Source of the DNA: Bacteroidota bacterium | GTDB taxonomy: Bacteria; Bacteroidota; Ignavibacteria; UBA10030 | NCBI GenBank assembly: GCA_021813905.1 | Contig: JAKAJH010000008.1 | Coordinates: 870-64,869, forward strand | DNA length: 64,000 bases | Direction of reading: 5' to 3' | Shown here: one piece after another, positions 10,945-20,360 of the stretch | How the letters are laid out: the number at the start of each line of letters is the position of its first letter | How positions within the stretch are numbered: the stretch's first letter is position 1 | The notes under the pieces: model-generated | Databases searched by the model: none | Seen by the model: only the letters and a program-made list of their open reading frames with translations | Told to the model about the DNA's origin: nothing | Program-made: the position numbers and the translations under genes

Positions 10945-12096
10945 TTACTTCAGATACACAACCTTCCGAACCTCGCTGACCGGCGGGAATCCCCCCTCCG
11001 CCGGTATCACCTCCACCCGACAGAAGTACACGCCTCCGCTGACCTCCGGCGTCCACCGGACGTCAGAAACTCCCGGCTCCGCCATGCCATCCGCGAGATG
11101 CGCCACCTCCTGCCCTTTCAGCGAGAAGACGGTCACCACCACGCGGCTCCGCACCGCCAACCGATAGCGGATCGTCGTCGAGGGATTGAACGGGTTGGGA
11201 TAGGCCGGCTCGAGTGCGAAGATGGAGGGACTCGGCGGCGGCGGAACTGCGTTTACGGACGGGACGATCGGTTCACCGGCATTGACCCAGGCAGTGTATA
11301 ACAGACAGGCGTAGCGTTGCGCCGCATGCTGCAGCAGCATTGTCGTAAAGGCTCCTGTCCGTTGCCACAGCGCGGTATAGTAGGCCGAAGGGACGGTACC
11401 GGATCCGCTCCAGCCGGAGAGGAGCTTCGCGTCCGTGTCCGCCGCCATGATCGAATCGACGTACTGGGATGATTCGCCGATGTACCCGAAGACAAAATCG
11501 AGCGGTCGATCGACGAATGTTGCGCCGGATGCGGAAAAACCGATGATCTGCTGATACTGGTCGATCATCCCGCTTTCGTGGCGCGAGTGAATGCCCCGGT
11601 TTCCGGTGAGTTGTCCGTCATAGTTGACCGTGCAGTGGAGCGGCTCGTGCGCGTCGGCGACGTAATGTCCGAGATCCGCCGCCGTGGACCAAACCAGCGT
11701 CCAGTCTCCGCGCCGCATCCGGGCCGTCAACGAGTCGACGGCGGCGACGGTCGCCCAGGGAAGCAGGCCGTTGCTCTGGACGCGGGTTGCGCCGTAGCGC
11801 GCGATCATGGAGTCGAGGGTGTGCGGAAGTGTGCCGGCGGCGAACTCCGGATAATCGTCGATGTCGATGTAATGCTTCGGCGCTTCGGTCGGATCACTGC
11901 TCTTTCGTGTATCGGCGTTGGACGCATAGCTCGCCAGAAGCGAAGTCCGGGCCAGGAATCCGGCCATTCCGGGAGGCAGATCAGCCGGACCTGCCGCGTT
12001 CACCATGCGGTGAGCAGTCGCGCCCCACCCACCGAAGAGAATGAGGCAGGCACACGAAACGGCAATGACGGGGAGAGCCGAGAAGCGAAATCGCAT
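10945..12096 (-). CDS. S1/P1-type zinc nuclease with T9SS C-terminal sorting domain
   Basis: The track ORF runs 10945-12324. I place the start at the internal ATG (MRFRFSALPVIAVSCACLILFGGWGATA, a signal peptide). S1/P1 nuclease features are present (WGATAH, HYIDIDDYPE, EPLHCT). The C-terminal AYPNPFNPSTTIRYRL...VYFCRVEV...KVVYLK is a type-A CTD. Confidence 0.8.
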   Translation of the reverse strand: MRFRFSALPVIAVSCACLILFGGWGATAHRMVNAAGPADLPPGMAGFLARTSLLASYASNADTRKSSDPTEAPKHYIDIDDYPEFAAGTLPHTLDSMIARYGATRVQSNGLLPWATVAAVDSLTARMRRGDWTLVWSTAADLGHYVADAHEPLHCTVNYDGQLTGNRGIHSRHESGMIDQYQQIIGFSASGATFVDRPLDFVFGYIGESSQYVDSIMAADTDAKLLSGWSGSGTVPSAYYTALWQRTGAFTTMLLQHAAQRYACLLYTAWVNAGEPIVPSVNAVPPPPSPSIFALEPAYPNPFNPSTTIRYRLAVRSRVVVTVFSLKGQEVAHLADGMAEPGVSDVRWTPEVSGGVYFCRVEVIPAEGGFPPVSEVRKVVYLK

Positions 12097-12199
12097 CACA
12101 GGAGTACAGAACCTTTCCGGAGAGACTGATGATGGATGAGAATACCCGGCACGCGACCCAATCGCCTGTCGCCGGCTTCCCATGCTCCGGGCGCACGGC

Positions 12200-13303
12200 T
12201 CATCGTTGCAGACCCGGCTGATAGTCGCGCGGGAGCATCTCCGCGGCGCGCTCAAATGCCCAGTACCCGCGAACGATCGTCCCGAAGGTATCCACGACGT
12301 GGCCGTCCAGCGCGATGGTGACATCGGACTTCGTCAGGCACAGCCAGGACACCTGTCCCGAAGAGACCCCGGGGGGATGAAACAGGCGCCCTTCGAACCC
12401 GTCGTAGGCCCGATCTTCTTCTTCGTTGACATAGCGTACGACCAGGCAATCGTCGAACCGGAGCATGCGGGTGGACGGCGTTGAACCTCCGGAGAGCAGA
12501 GAAGACGGCTCCATCTCCATCGGCCGGCCGTCCAGCGTCCGATCACCGTGATACAGCTCAAATCCCTCCGCGCGAAGCGTCCCCGCCAGCAGCGAACGGA
12601 GGAAGTGCATCAGCGAGCCCCGATACGCCCTCATCCGGTTCACGATCCATTCCCGCTCCTCATCCGCCGACCGCGCTTTCAGCGGCTCAAAGCGCGGAAT
12701 GACATCGGAGTAGAGCTTCTCGTCACTGCGGAAGAACTTCCGGATCACCAGCGAAAGCCGGTAGCCCAGGGCATGATTCTCGATGACAAGTGGCGCCGTT
12801 CCCGCATCCACCTCGAACCCCCCGTGCCCGTCGTCGACGCTGAAATTCAGGATTTCCGGATTGACAATCGTGCATCGGCGGGCATTCGGTGTCGTACCGA
12901 TGAGCAGACGCCGGAACTCCTCCAGATTGCGCATCCATTCCACCGGCGGAACGCCGCTCACATCCACCGGCGGCGTCTGCAGGATCGTCGGACGCAGTCG
13001 AAGATCGAAGCGATGGGACGCGGTATCGTACAGTGCGACCGCCCCGATCACCGTCTCGTAGCCCACGAGTGATGCGATCAACCGGTATGTACCCGTGGGG
13101 ATGTGCGTGATGGCAAATCGCCCCGCGCTGTCGGCTGCGCACCCGAACGTCGTCTGTTCGAGGAAGACGTTCGCATGCATCAGCGGGACGCCGGTCGAGT
13201 CGTCCACGACCGTGCCGGTGATCGTCCCCTGGGCACGCAGTTCGGAGACGGGCAGTTGCACTGCCAGAAGGCACAGGAGAGGAAGTAAGGGAAGGAACTT
13301 CAT
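12200..13303 (-). CDS. carboxypeptidase-regulatory-like (CarbopepD_reg) domain protein, secreted, function unknown
   Basis: 367 aa. Signal peptide MKFLPLLPLLCLLAVQLPVSELRAQ, followed by GTITGTVVDDSTGVPLMHANVFLEQTTFGCAADSAGRFAITHIPTGTYRLIASLVGYE (CarbopepD_reg_2-type beta-sandwich). Confidence 0.6.
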   Translation of the reverse strand: MKFLPLLPLLCLLAVQLPVSELRAQGTITGTVVDDSTGVPLMHANVFLEQTTFGCAADSAGRFAITHIPTGTYRLIASLVGYETVIGAVALYDTASHRFDLRLRPTILQTPPVDVSGVPPVEWMRNLEEFRRLLIGTTPNARRCTIVNPEILNFSVDDGHGGFEVDAGTAPLVIENHALGYRLSLVIRKFFRSDEKLYSDVIPRFEPLKARSADEEREWIVNRMRAYRGSLMHFLRSLLAGTLRAEGFELYHGDRTLDGRPMEMEPSSLLSGGSTPSTRMLRFDDCLVVRYVNEEEDRAYDGFEGRLFHPPGVSSGQVSWLCLTKSDVTIALDGHVVDTFGTIVRGYWAFERAAEMLPRDYQPGLQR

Positions 13304-14124: not shown

Positions 14125-15504
14125 TCAGCGCAGCAACACAAGACGCAGCGTGCGAGCCTCTCCCCCGGACAGAACGCGACAGAGGTACACTCCGCCCGCC
14201 ATTCCGGCGGCGTTCCACCGCGTCTCGAACGTCCCGGCCGGCAAAGAACCCTCAAGCAATGTCGCCACCTCTCTTCCGAGGAGGTCGTAGATCCTGACGC
14301 TCACGGGCGCGGCGGTTGCAAGAGAGATCCGGATGGTCGTCGACGGATTGAAGGGGTTCGGATAGCTCGACAGCGCAAACCCATCGGGCCGCGCATGCGC
14401 CGGAAGGCGCGGCACTCCCGTGACCTGATAGCGGGCCTTCAGGGTCATGATGCGCGCGTACGACTCTTCGACGCGCGAGCGCGGGATCGCGCCCCTTTCC
14501 ACGCAAGCCGCCAGCGTATCCACCAATTGCCGGCAGAGCGAACCGCTATTCAGGGTGTTGGAGACATACAGCAAGATATCGACTCCGGCGTTGACCGCAT
14601 GCTCGGCGGCCTCGAAAAAGCCGAAATTGTCCGTGATGGCAGCCATGTTGTACAGGTCGTCCGTGATCACGACGCCCTGGTAGCCGAGCGAATCCCGCAG
14701 CAGCCCCTGGATCGTTGCACGCGAGATCGACGACGGATACACACTGTCAATCGTCGCGTTGAAGAGGTGACCGGCCATCACGATGTCCACGCGATCGGAG
14801 GCAAGCAGATCGGTGTACGGAATCAGTTCCGCGCGGGTCCAGGTGTCGGTGATGTCCGGCAGGGTCAGATGGGAGTCTGTGCCGGCACTGCCGTGGCCCG
14901 GGAAGTGTTTGAGCGTGGTGATGATCCCTCGGGCACGGAACGCGTCGATGAACGCCGCGCAGTGAGCGGCCACGATCGATGGATCGGCGGAGAAGCTCCG
15001 GCCGTAGTGTCCGATCGCCGGACTGTTCGGATTCACGTTCACATCAGCCACCGGGGCGAAGTTGAGGTTCATGCCGGAGGCACTCAGCCATCCCGCCATC
15101 ATCGCCGCCTGCTTCGCCGTCGAGTCCACAGAGGCGTACACCGTGCCCAATGTGTAGGCAGACAGAGTTGGAGCAAAGCCGTTCGACCCGTTCAGGCGCG
15201 CGACAAATCCTCCCTCCTGGTCGACAGCAATGAAGGGCGGCGTCTGCGCCGCGCCTCGGAGCTGCGCCGTCAGCTGCTGGATCTGGGACGGGGAAACGAG
15301 ATTCCCGTTTCCGGTCATCACAATGACACCGCCGAGATTCCTCTGCGAGAGGTCCTCCAGGAGACTGTCGGGAGCCGTCGAGCCGACGAATCCGGAGATG
15401 ATCATCTGCCCGATCATCGAGCGGAGGTCCACCCCGCTTTGTGCGGTCAGAGCGGACGTACGAAGCAGCAGGGCACAGCAAATCAGAACGGCGCGTCGGT
15501 TCAT
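14125..15504 (-). CDS. glycoside hydrolase family 3 (NagZ-like beta-N-acetylhexosaminidase/beta-glucosidase) with T9SS C-terminal domain
   Basis: 459 aa with a signal peptide. The GH3 N-domain signature KHFPGHGSAGTDSHLTLP is present. C-terminal CTD: SSYPNPFNPSTTIRISL...GVYLCRVL...LRLVLLR. Confidence 0.85.
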   Translation of the reverse strand: MNRRAVLICCALLLRTSALTAQSGVDLRSMIGQMIISGFVGSTAPDSLLEDLSQRNLGGVIVMTGNGNLVSPSQIQQLTAQLRGAAQTPPFIAVDQEGGFVARLNGSNGFAPTLSAYTLGTVYASVDSTAKQAAMMAGWLSASGMNLNFAPVADVNVNPNSPAIGHYGRSFSADPSIVAAHCAAFIDAFRARGIITTLKHFPGHGSAGTDSHLTLPDITDTWTRAELIPYTDLLASDRVDIVMAGHLFNATIDSVYPSSISRATIQGLLRDSLGYQGVVITDDLYNMAAITDNFGFFEAAEHAVNAGVDILLYVSNTLNSGSLCRQLVDTLAACVERGAIPRSRVEESYARIMTLKARYQVTGVPRLPAHARPDGFALSSYPNPFNPSTTIRISLATAAPVSVRIYDLLGREVATLLEGSLPAGTFETRWNAAGMAGGVYLCRVLSGGEARTLRLVLLR

Positions 15505-15684
15505 TGCGGTGGAAAAGTGATTTCTGATGGATCGACAGGAAGAACGACCGAAGGACCGGCAGGCGGGTCATGCTCGGGCGGAATCTTCACTCGGCACCGC
15601 GTTCCGCGGCGCATTGGAAGGTACAGGAATATCTTTCCGAAGTCCAGATTCCGGGAGAGGAAATGCGCTGAACCACAAACGGCA

Positions 15685-15711
15685 AAGGGCCCGGAGCGTA
15701 CCCGGGCCCTT
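15685..15711 (-). terminator. hairpin terminating the sulfur/cytochrome operon
   Basis: aagggcccgg-agcgtac-ccgggccctt: a perfect 10-bp stem, 25 nt downstream of the YeeE-rhodanese stop. On the minus strand it is followed by ugccguuugugg. Confidence 0.5.
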
Positions 15712-15735
15712 CGTCAGGAACTGCCGGTCAGGCGT

Positions 15736-16929
15736 TCAGCATCCTCCCTGGATCTTCTTCGCGGTCTTCACGACCTTGACCGCGTGCTTGCTCTCTTCAA
15801 TCTTCTTCAGGATATCGACGCGGGCGCCGGCACGGAAGGTATTCACGTCCGCGTCCCAGCGGCTGCCGGTCGAGACCGGTCCCGTGGGGTGAAGGATCGC
15901 CCGATCGAACGCACCGTATCCCCCCTCCAGCGCGGTGCAGTTCTCGTATCCGAGATCCTGCAGCAGCAGAACGGCCGTCCGCTCCTCCTGTTCGTTCTCC
16001 CCCACGATCACCTTCTTCACGTGTCGTGGAGACAGCAGCGGGATCCAGTCCTTTCCGAAGAAGTCACGGATGCGGGCGTTCACGGCATTCGGCAGTGCCG
16101 CCGCGGTGAACGCGTTCGCGCTCCGGATATCGATAATGCGGATGTTCGGCTCATTGTCCACGATCCGGAACGCCAGCTCATCCACCGGCATCACCGCCGT
16201 CGGGTGGGCGGCGATGTACTGCGGATCCGAGAAGCGTTCGACCAGCGCGGTCTTCCTGTCCGGCAGAATGAGAAAGACCACTCCGAGGAGCAGAACGCCG
16301 GCCGCCGCCGCCCGGTGCGAACCGACCGGAAACTGCAAGGACGGTGCCCCGTTCGGATCCACCTTCCGCTCGATACGCGTCGTGATGGCAAACGCGGCAA
16401 CCGCCACCACGATCAGCGCGAAGGCGAACACGCCCTGGGAAATGCCCAGCGACTGGAACACCGTGATCGCGCCGAGATCGGTCGAGTGGTAGAATCCTTC
16501 GTACAGCGGGAACAGCTCGCCGAAGATCAGCACGCCCAGCAGACCGCCGCCGACGAAGAACATCGCGTCCACCTTTCCGATCGCGGCCGCGCAGACGCTG
16601 GTGCCCGGGCAGTAGCCTCCGAGGACAAATCCCACGCCCATGATCGCTCCGCCGACAATCGCCGGCAGGAGCCAGGTCGGATTCACATAGATCACGTCGG
16701 TATCCAGAAGCCCCAGGGCGCCGAGAAGAACCACGCCGCTCATGGCGGTCACGGCGGCGGTGAAAAACACGCGCAGGACGGTGAAATCGTAGCCGTAGAA
16801 CACGCCGGCCAGCTTGCGCGATGAGGAGAAGCCTGCTTGCTCGAGCACGAATCCGAACGCGATACCGAGCAGCAGCGCAACGACGAGATTGAGTTGATCT
16901 GAGATCAGATCAGGTACGAACGGTCCCAT
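15736..16929 (-). CDS. YeeE/YedE family sulfur-compound (thiosulfate-type) transporter fused to a C-terminal rhodanese domain
   Basis: 397 aa. The N-terminal about 250 aa are a polytopic membrane domain with the YeeE/YedE GGYCPG motif. The C-terminal about 120 aa are rhodanese-like (PNIRIIDIRSANAFTAAALPNAVNARI..., ends ...KIQGGC). Confidence 0.8.
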   Translation of the reverse strand: MGPFVPDLISDQLNLVVALLLGIAFGFVLEQAGFSSSRKLAGVFYGYDFTVLRVFFTAAVTAMSGVVLLGALGLLDTDVIYVNPTWLLPAIVGGAIMGVGFVLGGYCPGTSVCAAAIGKVDAMFFVGGGLLGVLIFGELFPLYEGFYHSTDLGAITVFQSLGISQGVFAFALIVVAVAAFAITTRIERKVDPNGAPSLQFPVGSHRAAAAGVLLLGVVFLILPDRKTALVERFSDPQYIAAHPTAVMPVDELAFRIVDNEPNIRIIDIRSANAFTAAALPNAVNARIRDFFGKDWIPLLSPRHVKKVIVGENEQEERTAVLLLQDLGYENCTALEGGYGAFDRAILHPTGPVSTGSRWDADVNTFRAGARVDILKKIEESKHAVKVVKTAKKIQGGC

Positions 16930-16947
16930 GAGTTCACCTTCTTTCGA

Positions 16948-17460
16948 TCAGATCCAGAGCCGGCGGAACACATACGCGACCGCATAGCCGGTTCCGAAAA
17001 TGGCAAGCATCGTGATGAATCCCGCGGCAGAGAGCACCGCCATGCCGCTGAGGGCCGCGCCGCTGGTGCAGCCGCGGGCAAACTGCGCGCCGATGCCGAA
17101 CAAGGCACCTCCCGTCGCGGCAAAGAACCACCGGGCACGCGGACGGATACGCGGACCGGATTCGGTGACCACCTTCAGCCGGTCGGAGACGAGCCCGGAG
17201 ATGAATCCCCCGATCAGCACGCCCGCCACCTCGAAGACGAGCCACGATTTGAGCGGACTGTCCTTTCCCGGACCGACATAGGTCCCGTAGAAGTCCGACC
17301 GTTCGGCGTGGGCCGGCGCCACACCGTCCACCGCAAACACCACCAGGCTCTTGATCGCGCCGCTGGCGCCGAGACCGCGACCGGTGATGAAGATCGTTGC
17401 CAGCAGAACCAGACCGAGCAGAACGCCGGCCAGGTACGGATTCATATATTTTGTATTCAT
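16948..17460 (-). CDS. YeeE/YedE family membrane protein (half-size unit)
   Basis: 170 aa. The motif FARGCTSGAALSG is YeeE/YedE-type. The start overlaps the stop of the cytochrome b gene. Confidence 0.8.
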   Translation of the reverse strand: MNTKYMNPYLAGVLLGLVLLATIFITGRGLGASGAIKSLVVFAVDGVAPAHAERSDFYGTYVGPGKDSPLKSWLVFEVAGVLIGGFISGLVSDRLKVVTESGPRIRPRARWFFAATGGALFGIGAQFARGCTSGAALSGMAVLSAAGFITMLAIFGTGYAVAYVFRRLWI

Positions 17461-18110
17461 GAATGATCTCCTGTCGCGTTCGGTGCGGACGGAGCGTTCG
17501 TTGGTGCATCCGGCAGTTCCTCATAGCCGATGATCATGGCCTTCAGGTTGGATGTCACGGTGCGCCCCGTGGTGATGAGGTAGAGATGCGCGATGAAGAA
17601 CGCGACGAGCAGGAACGCGCCCAGCGTGTGGATCTCCGCGATCACTTCCAGACCGGCGACGTTCAGACTCAGGACCTCATAGCGCTGCGGATAGCGGTAG
17701 AACATGTAGAGGATCCCGGAGATGCCCATGGTCGGGATCACGAGGACCTTCAGACCGGCGTAGACCAGCTTCTGGAGCGGATTCAGCTTGCTGAGCACCG
17801 TCTTTCTGGTCGGATGCGGAGCGTTCCGGAAGATCCCGAACACATAGTACATCGCCTGTGCCCGGAGGTTCTTCCAGGTCGGCAAATACTGCTTCCACTC
17901 GCCGGTTGTGAAGTGCCAGAAGATGGCAAATGCCACCAGCACAAGCAGCACCGTTGCCGCCGCGTTATGATAGCGCACCGCCTCATCAAAACCGAAAAAA
18001 TGGATGTAGCCGTGGATCTCAAATCCGGTCAGACCCAGAAAGACGATGAGTCCGGCCTGTGTCCAGTGCCAGAACCGCTCAAATCGACGATAGACATATT
18101 CCTTTTTCAT
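17457..18110 (-). CDS. membrane-integral cytochrome b subunit (PhsC/FdnI/Ni-Fe-hydrogenase b-type cytochrome family)
   Basis: The track ORF runs 17457-18176. I chose the internal ATG (MKKEYVYRRFERFWHWTQAG). That start lies about 2 nt after the octaheme cytochrome stop. There are four to five TM helices with conserved His residues (WHW, HGYIHFF, IAHLYLI), typical of a di-heme b quinol-interacting subunit. Confidence 0.65.
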   Translation of the reverse strand: MKKEYVYRRFERFWHWTQAGLIVFLGLTGFEIHGYIHFFGFDEAVRYHNAAATVLLVLVAFAIFWHFTTGEWKQYLPTWKNLRAQAMYYVFGIFRNAPHPTRKTVLSKLNPLQKLVYAGLKVLVIPTMGISGILYMFYRYPQRYEVLSLNVAGLEVIAEIHTLGAFLLVAFFIAHLYLITTGRTVTSNLKAMIIGYEELPDAPTNAPSAPNATGDHS

Positions 18111-18111
18111 A

Positions 18112-19680
18112 TTACTTGACCTCCTGACGAGCACGTGAGATAAACACGCGTGCGATTCCGTGGACGAGGACGGCACCCAACGTCAGCAGAACGATGGACA
18201 GACCGATCGTCTCCACCCACGGATTGCTGTCCCTGCCCGGCAGATAGAATCCGCCCAGCTTCGCCAAACGCCCGTTGTCTCTCGTATGACATTCACTGCA
18301 TTTGACACTTTCGCTCTTCGGCGACACCATGTGGTTGACCGGCCAGTACATTTCCGTTTCGGCGAATCCGTAGGAGCCGCTGTACGGCAGTCCGACCTGC
18401 TTCATTCCCTCTTCCGCTGCCCGCTGCCAGTTGAATTCCGACCAGTAGCCGCCGTCTCCCGGCTTTGTGGAAACCGTCTTGGGCTGGATCAGAATGTGGT
18501 ACTTGGTGTCGTAAATCTGCCGCGCCCGGTGGATCTTCACAGGGTAGATCTTCGAGTCCGGATCATCGTAGCTGCCGTGCAGTTGATTGAGCATCAGAGG
18601 ACGCGACGGATCGACCGTGTCACCGGCAAGATAATGCGACGCTGTGCCATTGAACCAGACATAGTCGGGCTTGAGGTTCCGTCCCCAGACGAATGATCCT
18701 TTGATGGACATATACACATCCGTGCCGCTGGAATCCTTTACCTCGTACGGCTTGCCGTCCCGCAACTTGCCCGCGGTGGACCAGTCCCAGAAGAGTTTCG
18801 TCGGATTCACCTTCGCATAGACGGGGATGTGGCATGTCTGGCAGGCGACCTTCAGGGTGTGCTGGTTGAGGATGTCGTCGGCGTGCGGCATTGCGGTGTG
18901 GCACTGTTCGCACTGCACGCGGTTGCGGTTCATCGAGGAGACGGAGTACATCTTGCCCAGCATCTGGTGCTTTCGGGCCGTGTGGCAGTCGACGCATTGC
19001 ATATCGACGCCGTCTGTTCCCATATGGACATCTTCCGAACGTGGCGGATCGAACATCGACTGCTCCAGATCGCCGTGCTTCACGTTGTTCCCCCCGCCGC
19101 CGAAGAAGTGACAGGTTCCGCAATCGGTGCGCTGCGGGCGGCCGACATGCTGAGCCACGTACGTGAGGTTTACGGACGGATCGGGCATGCCGGCACCGCC
19201 GACCGCCTTCACATACGTATTGCTGTTGTCATGGCAGACGAGACAGTCCACATTCAGCGAATCCTTGAAATTGAAGGAAGCATCCGCATATCCATACCCG
19301 ACATGACACTTGTTGCAGCTTTGCTGGTTGCCGGAAATGCCGATGCAGAAATTATTGAAGATGTTGCGTTTGCCGACGGTCCGGATCCCTTTGCCTTCGA
19401 TGTATTCGGTCCGTTCCCAGTTCCAGTGCGTCGAGCGCATTACCTCTGCGGCACGGCCGTTGTGACACGAGATGCAAGCCGCGGTGACTTCCTCCGGCCG
19501 GGAGAAGTGACGGCGAAGCTGCGTGAACTGCGAGTGATCGACGGATGGTTTGTCTTTCACGGCGTACTTCTGCTTCAGCGCGCTCAGCGGGCTGGCATCT
19601 TCGCTGTTCTTGCGAAGCGCCATGATGACGAAGATACCGATGAGTGCGAGCGCCACGAGTGAGAAGAAGATCCTTTTCAT
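18112..19680 (-). CDS. octaheme c-type cytochrome (NrfA/ONR/OTR/HAO multiheme superfamily)
   Basis: 522 aa. Eight CxxCH motifs are read directly: CISCH, CNKCH, CLVCH, CGTCH, CVDCH, CEQCH, CQTCH, CSECH. There is an N-terminal signal/anchor MKRIFFSLVALALIGIFVIMALR and a C-terminal hydrophobic helix IGLSIVLLTLGAVLVHGIARVFI. Confidence 0.85.
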   Translation of the reverse strand: MKRIFFSLVALALIGIFVIMALRKNSEDASPLSALKQKYAVKDKPSVDHSQFTQLRRHFSRPEEVTAACISCHNGRAAEVMRSTHWNWERTEYIEGKGIRTVGKRNIFNNFCIGISGNQQSCNKCHVGYGYADASFNFKDSLNVDCLVCHDNSNTYVKAVGGAGMPDPSVNLTYVAQHVGRPQRTDCGTCHFFGGGGNNVKHGDLEQSMFDPPRSEDVHMGTDGVDMQCVDCHTARKHQMLGKMYSVSSMNRNRVQCEQCHTAMPHADDILNQHTLKVACQTCHIPVYAKVNPTKLFWDWSTAGKLRDGKPYEVKDSSGTDVYMSIKGSFVWGRNLKPDYVWFNGTASHYLAGDTVDPSRPLMLNQLHGSYDDPDSKIYPVKIHRARQIYDTKYHILIQPKTVSTKPGDGGYWSEFNWQRAAEEGMKQVGLPYSGSYGFAETEMYWPVNHMVSPKSESVKCSECHTRDNGRLAKLGGFYLPGRDSNPWVETIGLSIVLLTLGAVLVHGIARVFISRARQEVK

Positions 19681-20186
19681 GAGTCCGTTCTCTGGTGACA
19701 GTGTGCGGGATCAGCGAGCGTTGCCGGATCGATGTTGTGAATCAGGAACTTGATCCGTTCGCAGTCCGCGGAAAGATGATAGACGATGCATGCTTGGCAA
19801 TCCCGGGCCGCGCAGACATTCCCCTCGTGTCGGTACGTCCAGCAACCGGCGATGTTCCGCCGATACGCAGGACACTGCAGGCGTTGTTTCATCGGGCAAT
19901 CGAGATGCTTCCAGCACGGGATCAGAGCATGGATCCGGCGAATTCCTTCGATCGAGATCTTCTGCTCATTGATCGCCGTCCGGATGCACCGGAGACGTTC
20001 GACGTCCGCATCCGAATACGTCCGTCGGTTATGGTCGCCTTTGGCGGTCAGCAGGAGTCCTTTGCGTTCGTAGAGTCTTATCGACTCCACGGACACGTTC
20101 AGAATTTCTGCGACAGTGCCGATTGAATACTGCGGTTTGTCTGTGGAAGGATTACGCATAGCTGTATTTATAAATACAACTCTCAT
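19677..20186 (-). CDS. MerR family transcriptional regulator with a cysteine-rich C-terminal domain
   Basis: 169 aa. A downstream internal ATG gives MRNPSTDKPQYS... at about 20159. MerR HTH: YSIGTVAEILNVSVESIRLYERKGLL. The C-terminal 70 aa contain 9 Cys (CWKHLDCP...CPAYRRNIAGCWTYRHEGNVCAARDCQACIVYHLSADC). Its stop overlaps the octaheme cytochrome start by 4 nt. Confidence 0.8.
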   Translation of the reverse strand: MRVVFINTAMRNPSTDKPQYSIGTVAEILNVSVESIRLYERKGLLLTAKGDHNRRTYSDADVERLRCIRTAINEQKISIEGIRRIHALIPCWKHLDCPMKQRLQCPAYRRNIAGCWTYRHEGNVCAARDCQACIVYHLSADCERIKFLIHNIDPATLADPAHCHQRTDS

Positions 20187-20332
20187 ACCGTTGGGAAACG
20201 GGCATTTTTTGCAGATTTGCGGCCAATTCTTGCTTGAGTTGCCGAAATCCGGGAAAATGCGGGGCCTTGTTTGGCGGATTCAGGAAAACATTGACACGGG
20301 AGGGTGCAACCGAAAGCTGTCCCCTGAAACAC

Positions 20333-20360
20333 GAATGCCCCGCTTGTAGGCGGGGCATTC
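20333..20360 (-). terminator. hairpin downstream of the FN3/CTD protein gene
   Basis: gaatgccccgc-ttgtag-gcggggcattc: a perfect 11-bp stem, 22 nt after the stop at 20382. Confidence 0.45.

Follow-up and report, generated by a model that had tools for sequence, protein, structure and literature searches.

What is the function of an octaheme cytochrome c whose gene is followed by genes for a membrane cytochrome and a sulfur channel? The question is raised by five genes between positions 15685 and 20360 of a 64,000-nucleotide stretch of contig JAKAJH010000008.1 from a Bacteroidota bacterium, the whole of which was analyzed and is called the window here. Coordinates are positions in the window taken from the open reading frame (ORF) map, and all five ORFs lie on the minus strand. 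Pfam and NCBIfam searches agreed with the identities given to the five products in a first-pass annotation: a MerR-like regulator, an octaheme cytochrome c, a cytochrome b, and two YeeE/YedE proteins, one of them fused to a rhodanese. The same annotation had proposed a quinol:tetrathionate (or polysulfide/thiosulfate) reductase whose product, thiosulfate, is imported and processed by the co-encoded YeeE/rhodanese. We arrived at another reading, to which we assign a probability of about one half: the four core genes behind the regulator may encode one membrane complex in which periplasmic, quinol-driven reductive sulfur chemistry is coupled to a sulfur channel. As the evidence is best read, the enzyme would be a periplasmic quinol-driven reductase for S–S-bonded sulfur compounds, probably tetrathionate, polysulfide, or thiosulfate.

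The cytochrome (18112-19680, 522 aa) matched TIGR04315, the "tetrathionate reductase family octaheme c-type cytochrome," with 601.5 bits over profile positions 1-440 of 440 (cut-off 375), and it matched Otr of Shewanella oneidensis (1SP3) with E = 5e-137 and ~50% identity over 405 aligned residues. NrfH and other multihaem models of NCBIfam gave marginal, partial matches only. One genome per species (GTDB representatives) was scanned for members of TIGR04315, which gave 582 Otr relatives, and the best 80 of these 582 (53-76% Otr identity) were taken together with 10-kb flanks and searched by tblastn with the window proteins. The eight CxxCH motifs counted in the first-pass annotation are present (residues 69, 122, 146, 187, 229, 257, 280, and 461) and are invariant in the 80 sequences, as are Lys104 and Cys112 (80/80), which align with Lys56 and Cys64 of 1SP3. 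Lys104 would thus be the ligand of the active-site haem, like Lys56 of the Shewanella protein. No CxxCK motif, the mark of the catalytic haem of NrfA and ONR, was found in the cytochrome. Because of the TIGR04315 score, the invariant equivalents of Lys56 and Cys64, and the missing CxxCK motif, the cytochrome is a member of the Otr family and not NrfA, ONR, or HAO; an identity as NrfA or ONR was rejected on the last of these points. The profile search and the inspection of active-site ligands, both of which the first-pass annotation had suggested for what it regarded as a candidate of the octaheme NrfA superfamily, therefore placed the protein with the Otr type, without the nitrite-type motif. 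An N-terminal anchor and a C-terminal hydrophobic helix, the latter kept in 78 of 79 relatives, accompany a catalytic domain that is predicted to be periplasmic. The eight CxxCH motifs, the active-site lysine, and the neighboring cysteine are all shared with Shewanella Otr, but the Shewanella type is soluble, has ~460 residues, and lacks the two helices. In addition, otr of the window type always precedes a cytochrome b gene, whereas the Shewanella type is found without cytochrome b and YeeE genes.

The cytochrome b (17457-18110, 217 aa) matched PF01292 with 95.7 bits (gathering threshold 30.1). Its closest named NCBIfam model was PhsC (NF011582), for which 98.1 bits were obtained against an equivalog cut-off of 204; the protein is not a PhsC orthologue. 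The histidines of the motifs FWHW, YH, FWH, HT, and H.Y, taken to be haem ligands in the transmembrane helices, are kept in 73 homologues, and the gene adjoins otr in 80/80 loci. The protein P0114 (labels of this form denote one protein, and labels such as L050 denote individual loci) comes from a metagenome and is a natural single-chain fusion of 742 aa, consisting of Otr, the C-terminal helix, a short basic linker, and cytochrome b. This order fits Otr outside, the linker inside, and the N terminus of cytochrome b inside. The di-haem cytochrome b is presumed to be the quinol dehydrogenase and membrane partner of Otr, and its earlier assignment as the quinol-side partner of the cytochrome is supported by PF01292 and by the natural fusion. 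PhsABC and PsrABC follow the same logic, with a membrane quinol dehydrogenase subunit that feeds a periplasmic reductase, but there the catalytic subunit is a molybdoenzyme instead of a multihaem cytochrome.

The gene order otr-cytB-yeeC-yeeN::rhd was kept in every one of the 80 loci except five whose contig ends first. These loci span Bacteroidota, Ignavibacteriota, Acidobacteriota, Planctomycetota, Armatimonadota, and candidate phyla, and all-against-all clustering of the flank ORFs showed that only the four core genes are universal. A lack of conserved linkage between the cytochrome pair and YeeE genes had been named beforehand as a result that would speak against the proposed module; the co-occurrence proved to be striking in the 80 species-level loci. 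It does not extend to the Otr family as a whole. The otr genes of the Shewanella/Marinobacter type (L087, 3814-7401; L088, 3900-7383) follow a monohaem cytochrome c and a 570-aa DUF3373 protein, a context of soluble otr that may have its own meaning, and the otr of Malonomonas is an orphan that stands alone, so linkage for the whole family was rejected. Genes for a cytochrome b and a YeeE C-half also precede a more distant fused homologue, whose rhodanese part shows 35% identity. The distant module version in L090 carries a class-V aminotransferase gene (cysteine desulfurase-like, PF00266; 2454-3617) directly after the YeeN-rhodanese gene.

A different enzyme was found before the YeeE genes in L050, L031, L060, L064, L014, L091, and L092. 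Its three components are a PsrA/PhsA-like molybdoenzyme of the Tat type, an Fe-S subunit resembling PsrB, and an NrfD/PsrC subunit. For the molybdoenzyme, the thiosulfate reductase PhsA was the best match in NCBIfam, at 435-507 bits and below the equivalog cut-off. Behind these three genes follow a YeeE C-half, an N-half of 200 aa, and one or two signal-anchored proteins made of a rhodanese domain with a Gly-Gly-Cys end (Rhd-GGC). Such paralogous Psr/Phs-like operons occupy 3176-9456 in L050, 33-5037 in L031, 17829-21517 in L060, 14170-20181 in L064, and 1952-9990 in L091. That of L064 adjoins the Otr module and is preceded by the same type of eight-cysteine MerR regulator and promoter motif as the operon of the window. 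The Psr/Phs-like operons of L091 and L092 contain two further rhodanese genes. The YeeE pair plus Rhd-GGC is a portable accessory for two unrelated quinol-dependent periplasmic reductases. For both kinds of reductase, cleavage of S–S bonds is known or assumed.

The exchange bears on the view that the cytochrome is a nitrite or hydroxylamine reductase or detoxifier merely situated beside sulfur-transport genes. Shewanella Otr is much faster in vitro on nitrite and hydroxylamine than on tetrathionate (Atkinson 2007, as quoted in PMC12949373, PMC10949509, and PMC4911364), yet the linkage with the YeeE family holds in 80/80 loci, a Psr/Phs-like enzyme can take the place of Otr beside the accessory set, nitrogen-cycle genes are not conserved near the 80 loci, and the CxxCK motif is missing. 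We regard this view as very improbable for the module. Through the strictly conserved context of the module, an Otr subfamily that is large and spread over many phyla is linked with sulfur trafficking and not with nitrogen chemistry.

The two YeeE/YedE genes code for complementary halves of one protein. The C-terminal-half subunit (16948-17460, 170 aa; PmpA/YedE-like) covers positions 175-308 of 310 of PF04143 with 66.1 bits, and the N-half, which opens the 397-aa YeeE-rhodanese protein (15736-16929; PF04143 plus PF00581), covers positions 10-161 with 48.8 bits (cut-off 27). The N-half core with its linking helix TM5 comprises residues 1-194 (16348-16929). The C-half carries the cysteine motif RGCTSGA and the N-half GGYCPGTSVC, in which Cys107 and Cys113 are conserved; the first re-entrant motif of the N-half (AGFSS) contains no cysteine, and the first TsuA cysteine is thus missing. 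Scores against the TsuA equivalog of NCBIfam were 37 and 16 bits, the cut-off being 400. Assignment to the full-length TsuA/YeeE thiosulfate transporter type was dropped in view of the two genes, the low scores, and the absent first cysteine. Judged by sequence, the pair is of the split PmpAB/YedE1E2 type, with C-half and N-half genes bearing one core cysteine motif each; the correspondence of PmpA and PmpB to the C- and N-half was taken from PMC11582611, where they are described as the two halves of YeeE. For the C-half, the positive-inside analysis gave N-in and C-in, with a mean K+R of 5.07 in loop 93-110. Such an orientation agrees with an antiparallel pair and with YeeE, whose C terminus is cytoplasmic (PMC11073785). 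PmpA/PmpB of Serratia and YedE1/YedE2 of Cupriavidus and Sinorhizobium are likewise encoded by neighboring genes as the C-half and N-half of a YeeE-type protein, and split YedE1E2 imports zero-valent sulfur via essential cysteines (PMC10812762). The pair in the window differs from these in two respects: its N-half has two extra helices and a predicted periplasmic rhodanese-GGC extension, and its genes are tied to a respiratory-type reductase instead of a persulfide dioxygenase or ArsR-type regulators.

Both YeeE halves also gave weak NCBIfam matches to YedE/FdhT selenium models (E = 7.6e-5 and 7e-4, below the cut-offs), and stand-alone relatives of the rhodanese domain gave weak matches, again below the cut-offs, to models of rhodanese-related selenoproteins. 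A role in selenium or tellurium handling, with a reductase acting on selenite or selenotrisulfides, could be built on these matches and on the known link of YedE-type proteins with selenium metabolism. All such scores are far below the cut-offs, however, the loci showed neither selD, selA, and selB genes nor Sec codons, and the Psr/Phs-like and Otr partners indicate sulfur, which makes this role extremely improbable.

The rhodanese domain (about residues 245-346, 15892-16197) matched PF00581 with 35.2 bits (threshold 22.2), and Foldseek confirmed the rhodanese fold with TM-scores of 0.66-0.79 (normalized to target length) to single-domain rhodaneses. The position of the catalytic cysteine is occupied by Ala (47), Gly (14), Ser (6), Asp (1), or Thr (1) in 69 full-length homologues and never by cysteine. 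In accordance with this, the best profile matches were inactive rhodanese modules, namely Alr3790 and domain 3 of 1YT8. When the YeeN profile was run against the Protein Data Bank sequences, rhodaneses only were returned and StYeeE was not found. The only cysteines of the 397-aa protein conserved in the 69 homologues are Cys107 and Cys113 of the YeeE core and the last residue, Cys397. The latter is 100% conserved: a tail rich in Lys/Arg and ending in Gly-Gly-Cys occurs at the C terminus, or at most two residues short of it, in every intact homologue (~70). Copies of YeeN-rhodanese without this end were seen in three loci. A frame change lies inside the rhodanese part in L007 (12764-13958), the protein is truncated at 246 aa in L011 (12762-13502), and a different end is present in L019 (12768-13913); the three may be assembly errors or decayed genes.

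Within the window protein, the Lys-rich flexible tail with the invariant end comprises residues 382-397 (15739-15786). The AlphaFold2 (AF2) model shows six helices and a confident rhodanese domain (pLDDT 80-90), after which a long helix (residues 359-381) is followed by a disordered tail (384-397, pLDDT <50). The sixth transmembrane helix (about residues 202-225, 16254-16326) is hydrophobic in all homologues and is modeled at residues 202-221. Mean K+R per loop of the N-half was 0 at the N terminus and then 2.0, 0.01, 1.0, 1.3, and 4.35, the last value belonging to loop 186-206. By the positive-inside rule these charges indicate six helices with the N terminus outside, and hence a domain past helix 6 that would be outside too. 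A search with the rhodanese domain alone returned a small family of 282 representatives. Among them are stand-alone proteins of ~200 aa in which a basic n-region and a hydrophobic signal anchor precede the rhodanese domain, with a Lys-rich linker and GGC behind it. Such a stand-alone protein is preceded by the gene of a YeeE N-half of 200 aa with a K/R tail at its end. In L050, the signal-anchored Rhd-GGC protein can be aligned, from its residue 14 onward, with residues ~212-397 of the window protein. The window protein is a fusion of a 200-aa YeeN with a signal-anchored Rhd-GGC protein, the signal anchor having become helix 6. Three independent sequence arguments, namely the loop charges, the stand-alone relatives, and the gene fusion, thus predict a periplasmic Rhd-GGC domain.

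These properties are at odds with the last step of the first-pass model. Spelled out in full, this model says that Otr and cytochrome b form a quinol:tetrathionate reductase, thiosulfate enters through a TsuA-like YeeE, and a cytoplasmic rhodanese desulfurates it. Several of its elements have a sound basis: Otr reduces tetrathionate in vitro (Mowat 2004, as quoted in PMC12949373), the otr gene of a sediment acidobacterium was induced 36-fold by tetrathionate in sediment microcosms (PMC8528874), and both halves match PF04143 in a conserved gene linkage. In full-length YeeE/TsuA, moreover, thiosulfate is imported by way of three cysteines and received in the cytoplasm by the cysteine of a partner protein or by a sulfurtransferase (PMC11073785). 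But the catalytic cysteine of the rhodanese is absent in 69/69 homologues, its domain is placed in the periplasm by the three arguments above, and the TsuA score of 37 against 400 comes with the loss of the first TsuA cysteine. A cytoplasmic catalytic rhodanese was rejected on the grounds of the missing cysteine and the predicted topology, and the claim that imported thiosulfate is processed by the co-encoded rhodanese cannot be upheld for a domain whose only conserved cysteine is that of the GGC end. Furthermore, import of product thiosulfate is not the general logic of the accessory genes, because the same set serves Psr/Phs-like molybdoenzymes, which make no thiosulfate. We consider the first-pass model unlikely.

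SoxY carries sulfur on a C-terminal GGCGG arm. An invariant cysteine after Gly-Gly at the extreme end of a flexible, predicted periplasmic tail is what the window protein has in common with SoxY of SoxYZ, and by this analogy the GGC tail is a candidate carrier "swinging arm." The analogy is functional only: the fold is that of a rhodanese and not the SoxY beta-sandwich, the putative carrier is tethered to a YeeE half or encoded beside one, and no soxZ-like gene was found to be conserved by clustering of the flank ORFs of the 80 loci. A second comparison is offered by rhodaneses. Periplasmic rhodaneses deliver sulfur to Psr. Sud of Wolinella and the rhodaneses of psr operons, in which members with signal peptides are present (PMC12142623), are periplasmic rhodanese-fold proteins encoded with a sulfur reductase to which they are thought to deliver sulfur. 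Sud (1QXN) was recovered as a weak profile match (E = 0.002), but it binds sulfur on the catalytic-loop cysteine that is absent here, where the sole conserved cysteine of the rhodanese part is C-terminal.

The resemblance to SoxY could also be taken as a sign of oxidation. A SoxXA-like Otr would couple thiosulfate or sulfide to the arm cysteine, electrons would pass through cytochrome b to the quinone, and sulfur would be imported via YeeE. Import of SoxYZ-bound sulfur through the YeeE-like SoxT (SoxT1A) has been proposed (PMC11582611), and in sulfur-oxidising lucinid symbionts otr adjoins divergent soxY/soxZ, described as soxY-S3/soxZ (PMC11237559). What argues for the reductive direction instead is that the interchangeable partner is a Psr/Phs-type reductase, that most of the hosts are heterotrophs with an anaerobic or facultative way of life (Ignavibacteriota, Marinilabiliales, Acidobacteriota), and that no sulfur-oxidation genes are conserved near the 80 loci. 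Moreover, a couple at +198 mV makes menaquinone reduction unfavorable, and an oxidative function appears improbable to us. The value of +198 mV is the one quoted for the tetrathionate/thiosulfate couple (PMC8528874).

The invariant arm bears equally on the idea of a sulfite reductase like MccA/SirA, in which YeeE moves sulfite or sulfide and Rhd-GGC is a structural or assembly factor. The haem cores of Otr and MccA superimpose, and a ttr otr double mutant of Shewanella ANA-3 accumulates more sulfite, from which its authors suggested a role as sulfite reductase (PMC12949373). That enzyme, however, belongs to a different context subfamily; partners of the MccB/C/D type are missing here, and an invariant terminal cysteine on a flexible tail is left unexplained. 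This function is decidedly improbable.

For the complex favored here, a reductase coupled to a sulfur channel, the following course of events can be imagined. The di-haem cytochrome b would draw electrons from menaquinol and pass them on to the Otr-type cytochrome, which would be tethered by its N- and C-terminal helices so that the Lys-ligated active-site haem lies in the periplasm. The two YeeE halves would form an antiparallel channel like that of PmpAB/YedE1E2, and the two extra helices of the N-half would put the catalytically dead rhodanese-fold domain in the periplasm. There the GGC cysteine on its 16-residue Lys-rich tail might act as a SoxY-like swinging arm, taking sulfur from tetrathionate, polysulfide/S0, or thiosulfate as a Cys-S-Sn or Cys-S-S-SO3 adduct, which would be offered to the active site of Otr (or Psr/Phs) for reduction. 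Either the arm cysteine or the released product would then feed the cysteine relay of YeeE for transmembrane transfer, and the MerR regulator with its eight-cysteine sensor domain would turn the operon on. Tetrathionate is a possible substrate, and the carrier role, the substrate, and the direction of transport are suggested by the analogies given above. We would go one step further only tentatively, since the following is possible but doubtful: that the membrane-anchored Otr acts not on free tetrathionate but on sulfur bound to the GGC carrier cysteine, that the trio can be plugged into Otr-cytochrome b or Psr/Phs, and that the same principle recurs in the otr-soxY-soxZ islands of symbionts.

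A number of observations weigh against the proposed complex. The Otr literature is contradictory (PMC12949373 versus PMC8528874). According to the material quoted in PMC12949373, the soluble Otr of Shewanella needs no carrier to reduce free tetrathionate, nitrite, and hydroxylamine in vitro. Deletion of otr in Shewanella gave no tetrathionate phenotype, and the physiological role is disputed (PMC12949373). The function may differ between Otr subfamilies or may involve no tetrathionate at all. Substrate, direction, and the part played by the arm were argued by analogy, and the likeness to SoxY consists of a three-residue motif and a flexible tail on a rhodanese fold instead of that of SoxY. The sidedness of the Rhd-GGC domain is a prediction from sequence; in the AF2 model the membrane part has low pLDDT values (40-70), and sidedness cannot be read from the structure match. 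Finally, the cytoplasmic acceptors TusA, YeeD, and DsrE were not conserved beside the module in the 80 loci.

Searches of the literature retrieved no description of the four-gene module, of a dead rhodanese with a GGC end, or of the sharing of accessory genes between Otr and Psr/Phs. The exact gene combination is thus apparently undescribed in the searchable full-text literature. The Otr-cytochrome b pair has already been noted in genome papers (PMC4911364, PMC7509429), and models in which periplasmic rhodaneses and YeeE pass sulfur inward already exist (PMC12142623, PMC11582611). What is new is the combination of genes and the putative carrier tail, all parts being from known families. The physiological function of Otr has not been established since 2004 (PMC12949373), and metagenome surveys nevertheless routinely score Otr as "tetrathionate reduction"; in one spring this concerned 73 genomes belonging to 14 phyla (PMC9040765). 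The candidate carrier-cysteine protein had gone unremarked, and the accessory set is common to Psr/Phs-type reductases; both bear on the handover of periplasmic sulfur to YeeE-type channels, an open point in current models (PMC11582611). The proposed role is directly testable, as the cultured hosts include Mariniphaga anaerophila DSM 26910, Gaoshiqia sediminis, Sunxiuqinia rutila, and Saccharicrinis sp.

The regulator gene differs by lineage: a MerR protein with eight cysteines occurs in ~19-20 loci, a MarR-like protein in 14, and an NtrC-type sigma-54 activator in 6. The MerR protein of the window (169-aa ORF, 19677-20186) matched PF13411 with 64.8 bits through its N-terminal helix-turn-helix, and no NCBIfam equivalog (HspR, MerR, CueR, SoxR, and others) reached its cut-off. 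Its C-terminal domain (19677-19916) has the pattern CW..C..C..CW..C..C..C..C and no Pfam match. The eight cysteines (Cys91, Cys97, Cys104, Cys115, Cys125, Cys130, Cys133, and Cys142 in the numbering of the 169-aa ORF) are conserved in 19 homologues, and the domain could be an Fe-S or persulfide sensor. A perfect, AT-rich palindrome, TGTATTTATAAATACA (20163-20178), lies 3 nt upstream of ATG 20159 and is a candidate MerR operator. Identical or extended palindromes (e.g. GTTGATATTTATAAATATCAAC) were seen at the same place in L007, L008, L010, L012, L027, L045, and L076. Because a start at this position after the palindrome is conserved in the homologues and ATG 20186 is not, the true start is almost certainly ATG 20159, which gives a protein of 160 aa (19677-20159).

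Overlapping the palindrome is a GG(C/T)A-N6-TTG element, in the window GGTATGAGAGTTGT (20176-20189), which resembles a sigma-54 -24/-12 promoter and is tentatively regarded as such. The element recurs at the same distance from the merR start in MerR-bearing loci and was present in 18/75 loci, almost always directly before merR-type genes, against ~0.08 expected per locus. In L064 it is found before the otr operon as well as before the merR-psr operon, and there two copies of TTTATAcTATAAA flank it. A scan for sigma-70 consensus sequences upstream returned nothing convincing.

The five genes are tightly packed and are flanked on both sides by strong hairpins, and folding and the ORF map bore out the compact unit bracketed at 20333-20360 and 15685-15711 that had been described for this strand. 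The hairpin past the last gene (15685-15711) is terminator-like, with a folding energy of -25.2 kcal/mol (z = -4.2), and that at 20333-20360 (-22.6 kcal/mol, z = -6.0) is the terminator-like hairpin of the upstream 724-aa gene and marks the 5' boundary of the unit. Each was better than all of 200 shuffled sequences (0/200 equally good). The overlaps of 4 nt between the MerR and cytochrome genes (ATGA, 19677-19680) and between the stop of cytochrome b and the start of YeeE (17457-17460), as well as the 18-nt gap before the YeeE-rhodanese gene, are as noted earlier. The cytochrome and cytochrome b genes do nearly abut, but the distance from the stop of the former to the ATG at 18110 is 1 nt, not the ~2 nt first reported.

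Rfam and tRNA scans of the window found nothing. The neighbors of the module in the window, a TonB-type receptor, a GH3 enzyme with a type IX secretion tail, and an HAD hydrolase, are unrelated to it. Sorting domains for type IX secretion (PNPFNPSTTIRY...) form the ends of two neighboring secreted proteins (10945-12324 and 14125-15504, minus strand), in keeping with a host from the Bacteroidota/Ignavibacteriota group, and upstream of these lie a PorV-like gene and that of a 1015-aa TonB-type receptor. An open frame of 809 aa on the plus strand (14395-16824), antisense to the GH3 and YeeN-rhodanese genes, is most likely a by-product of the G+C content of 62% and not a gene.

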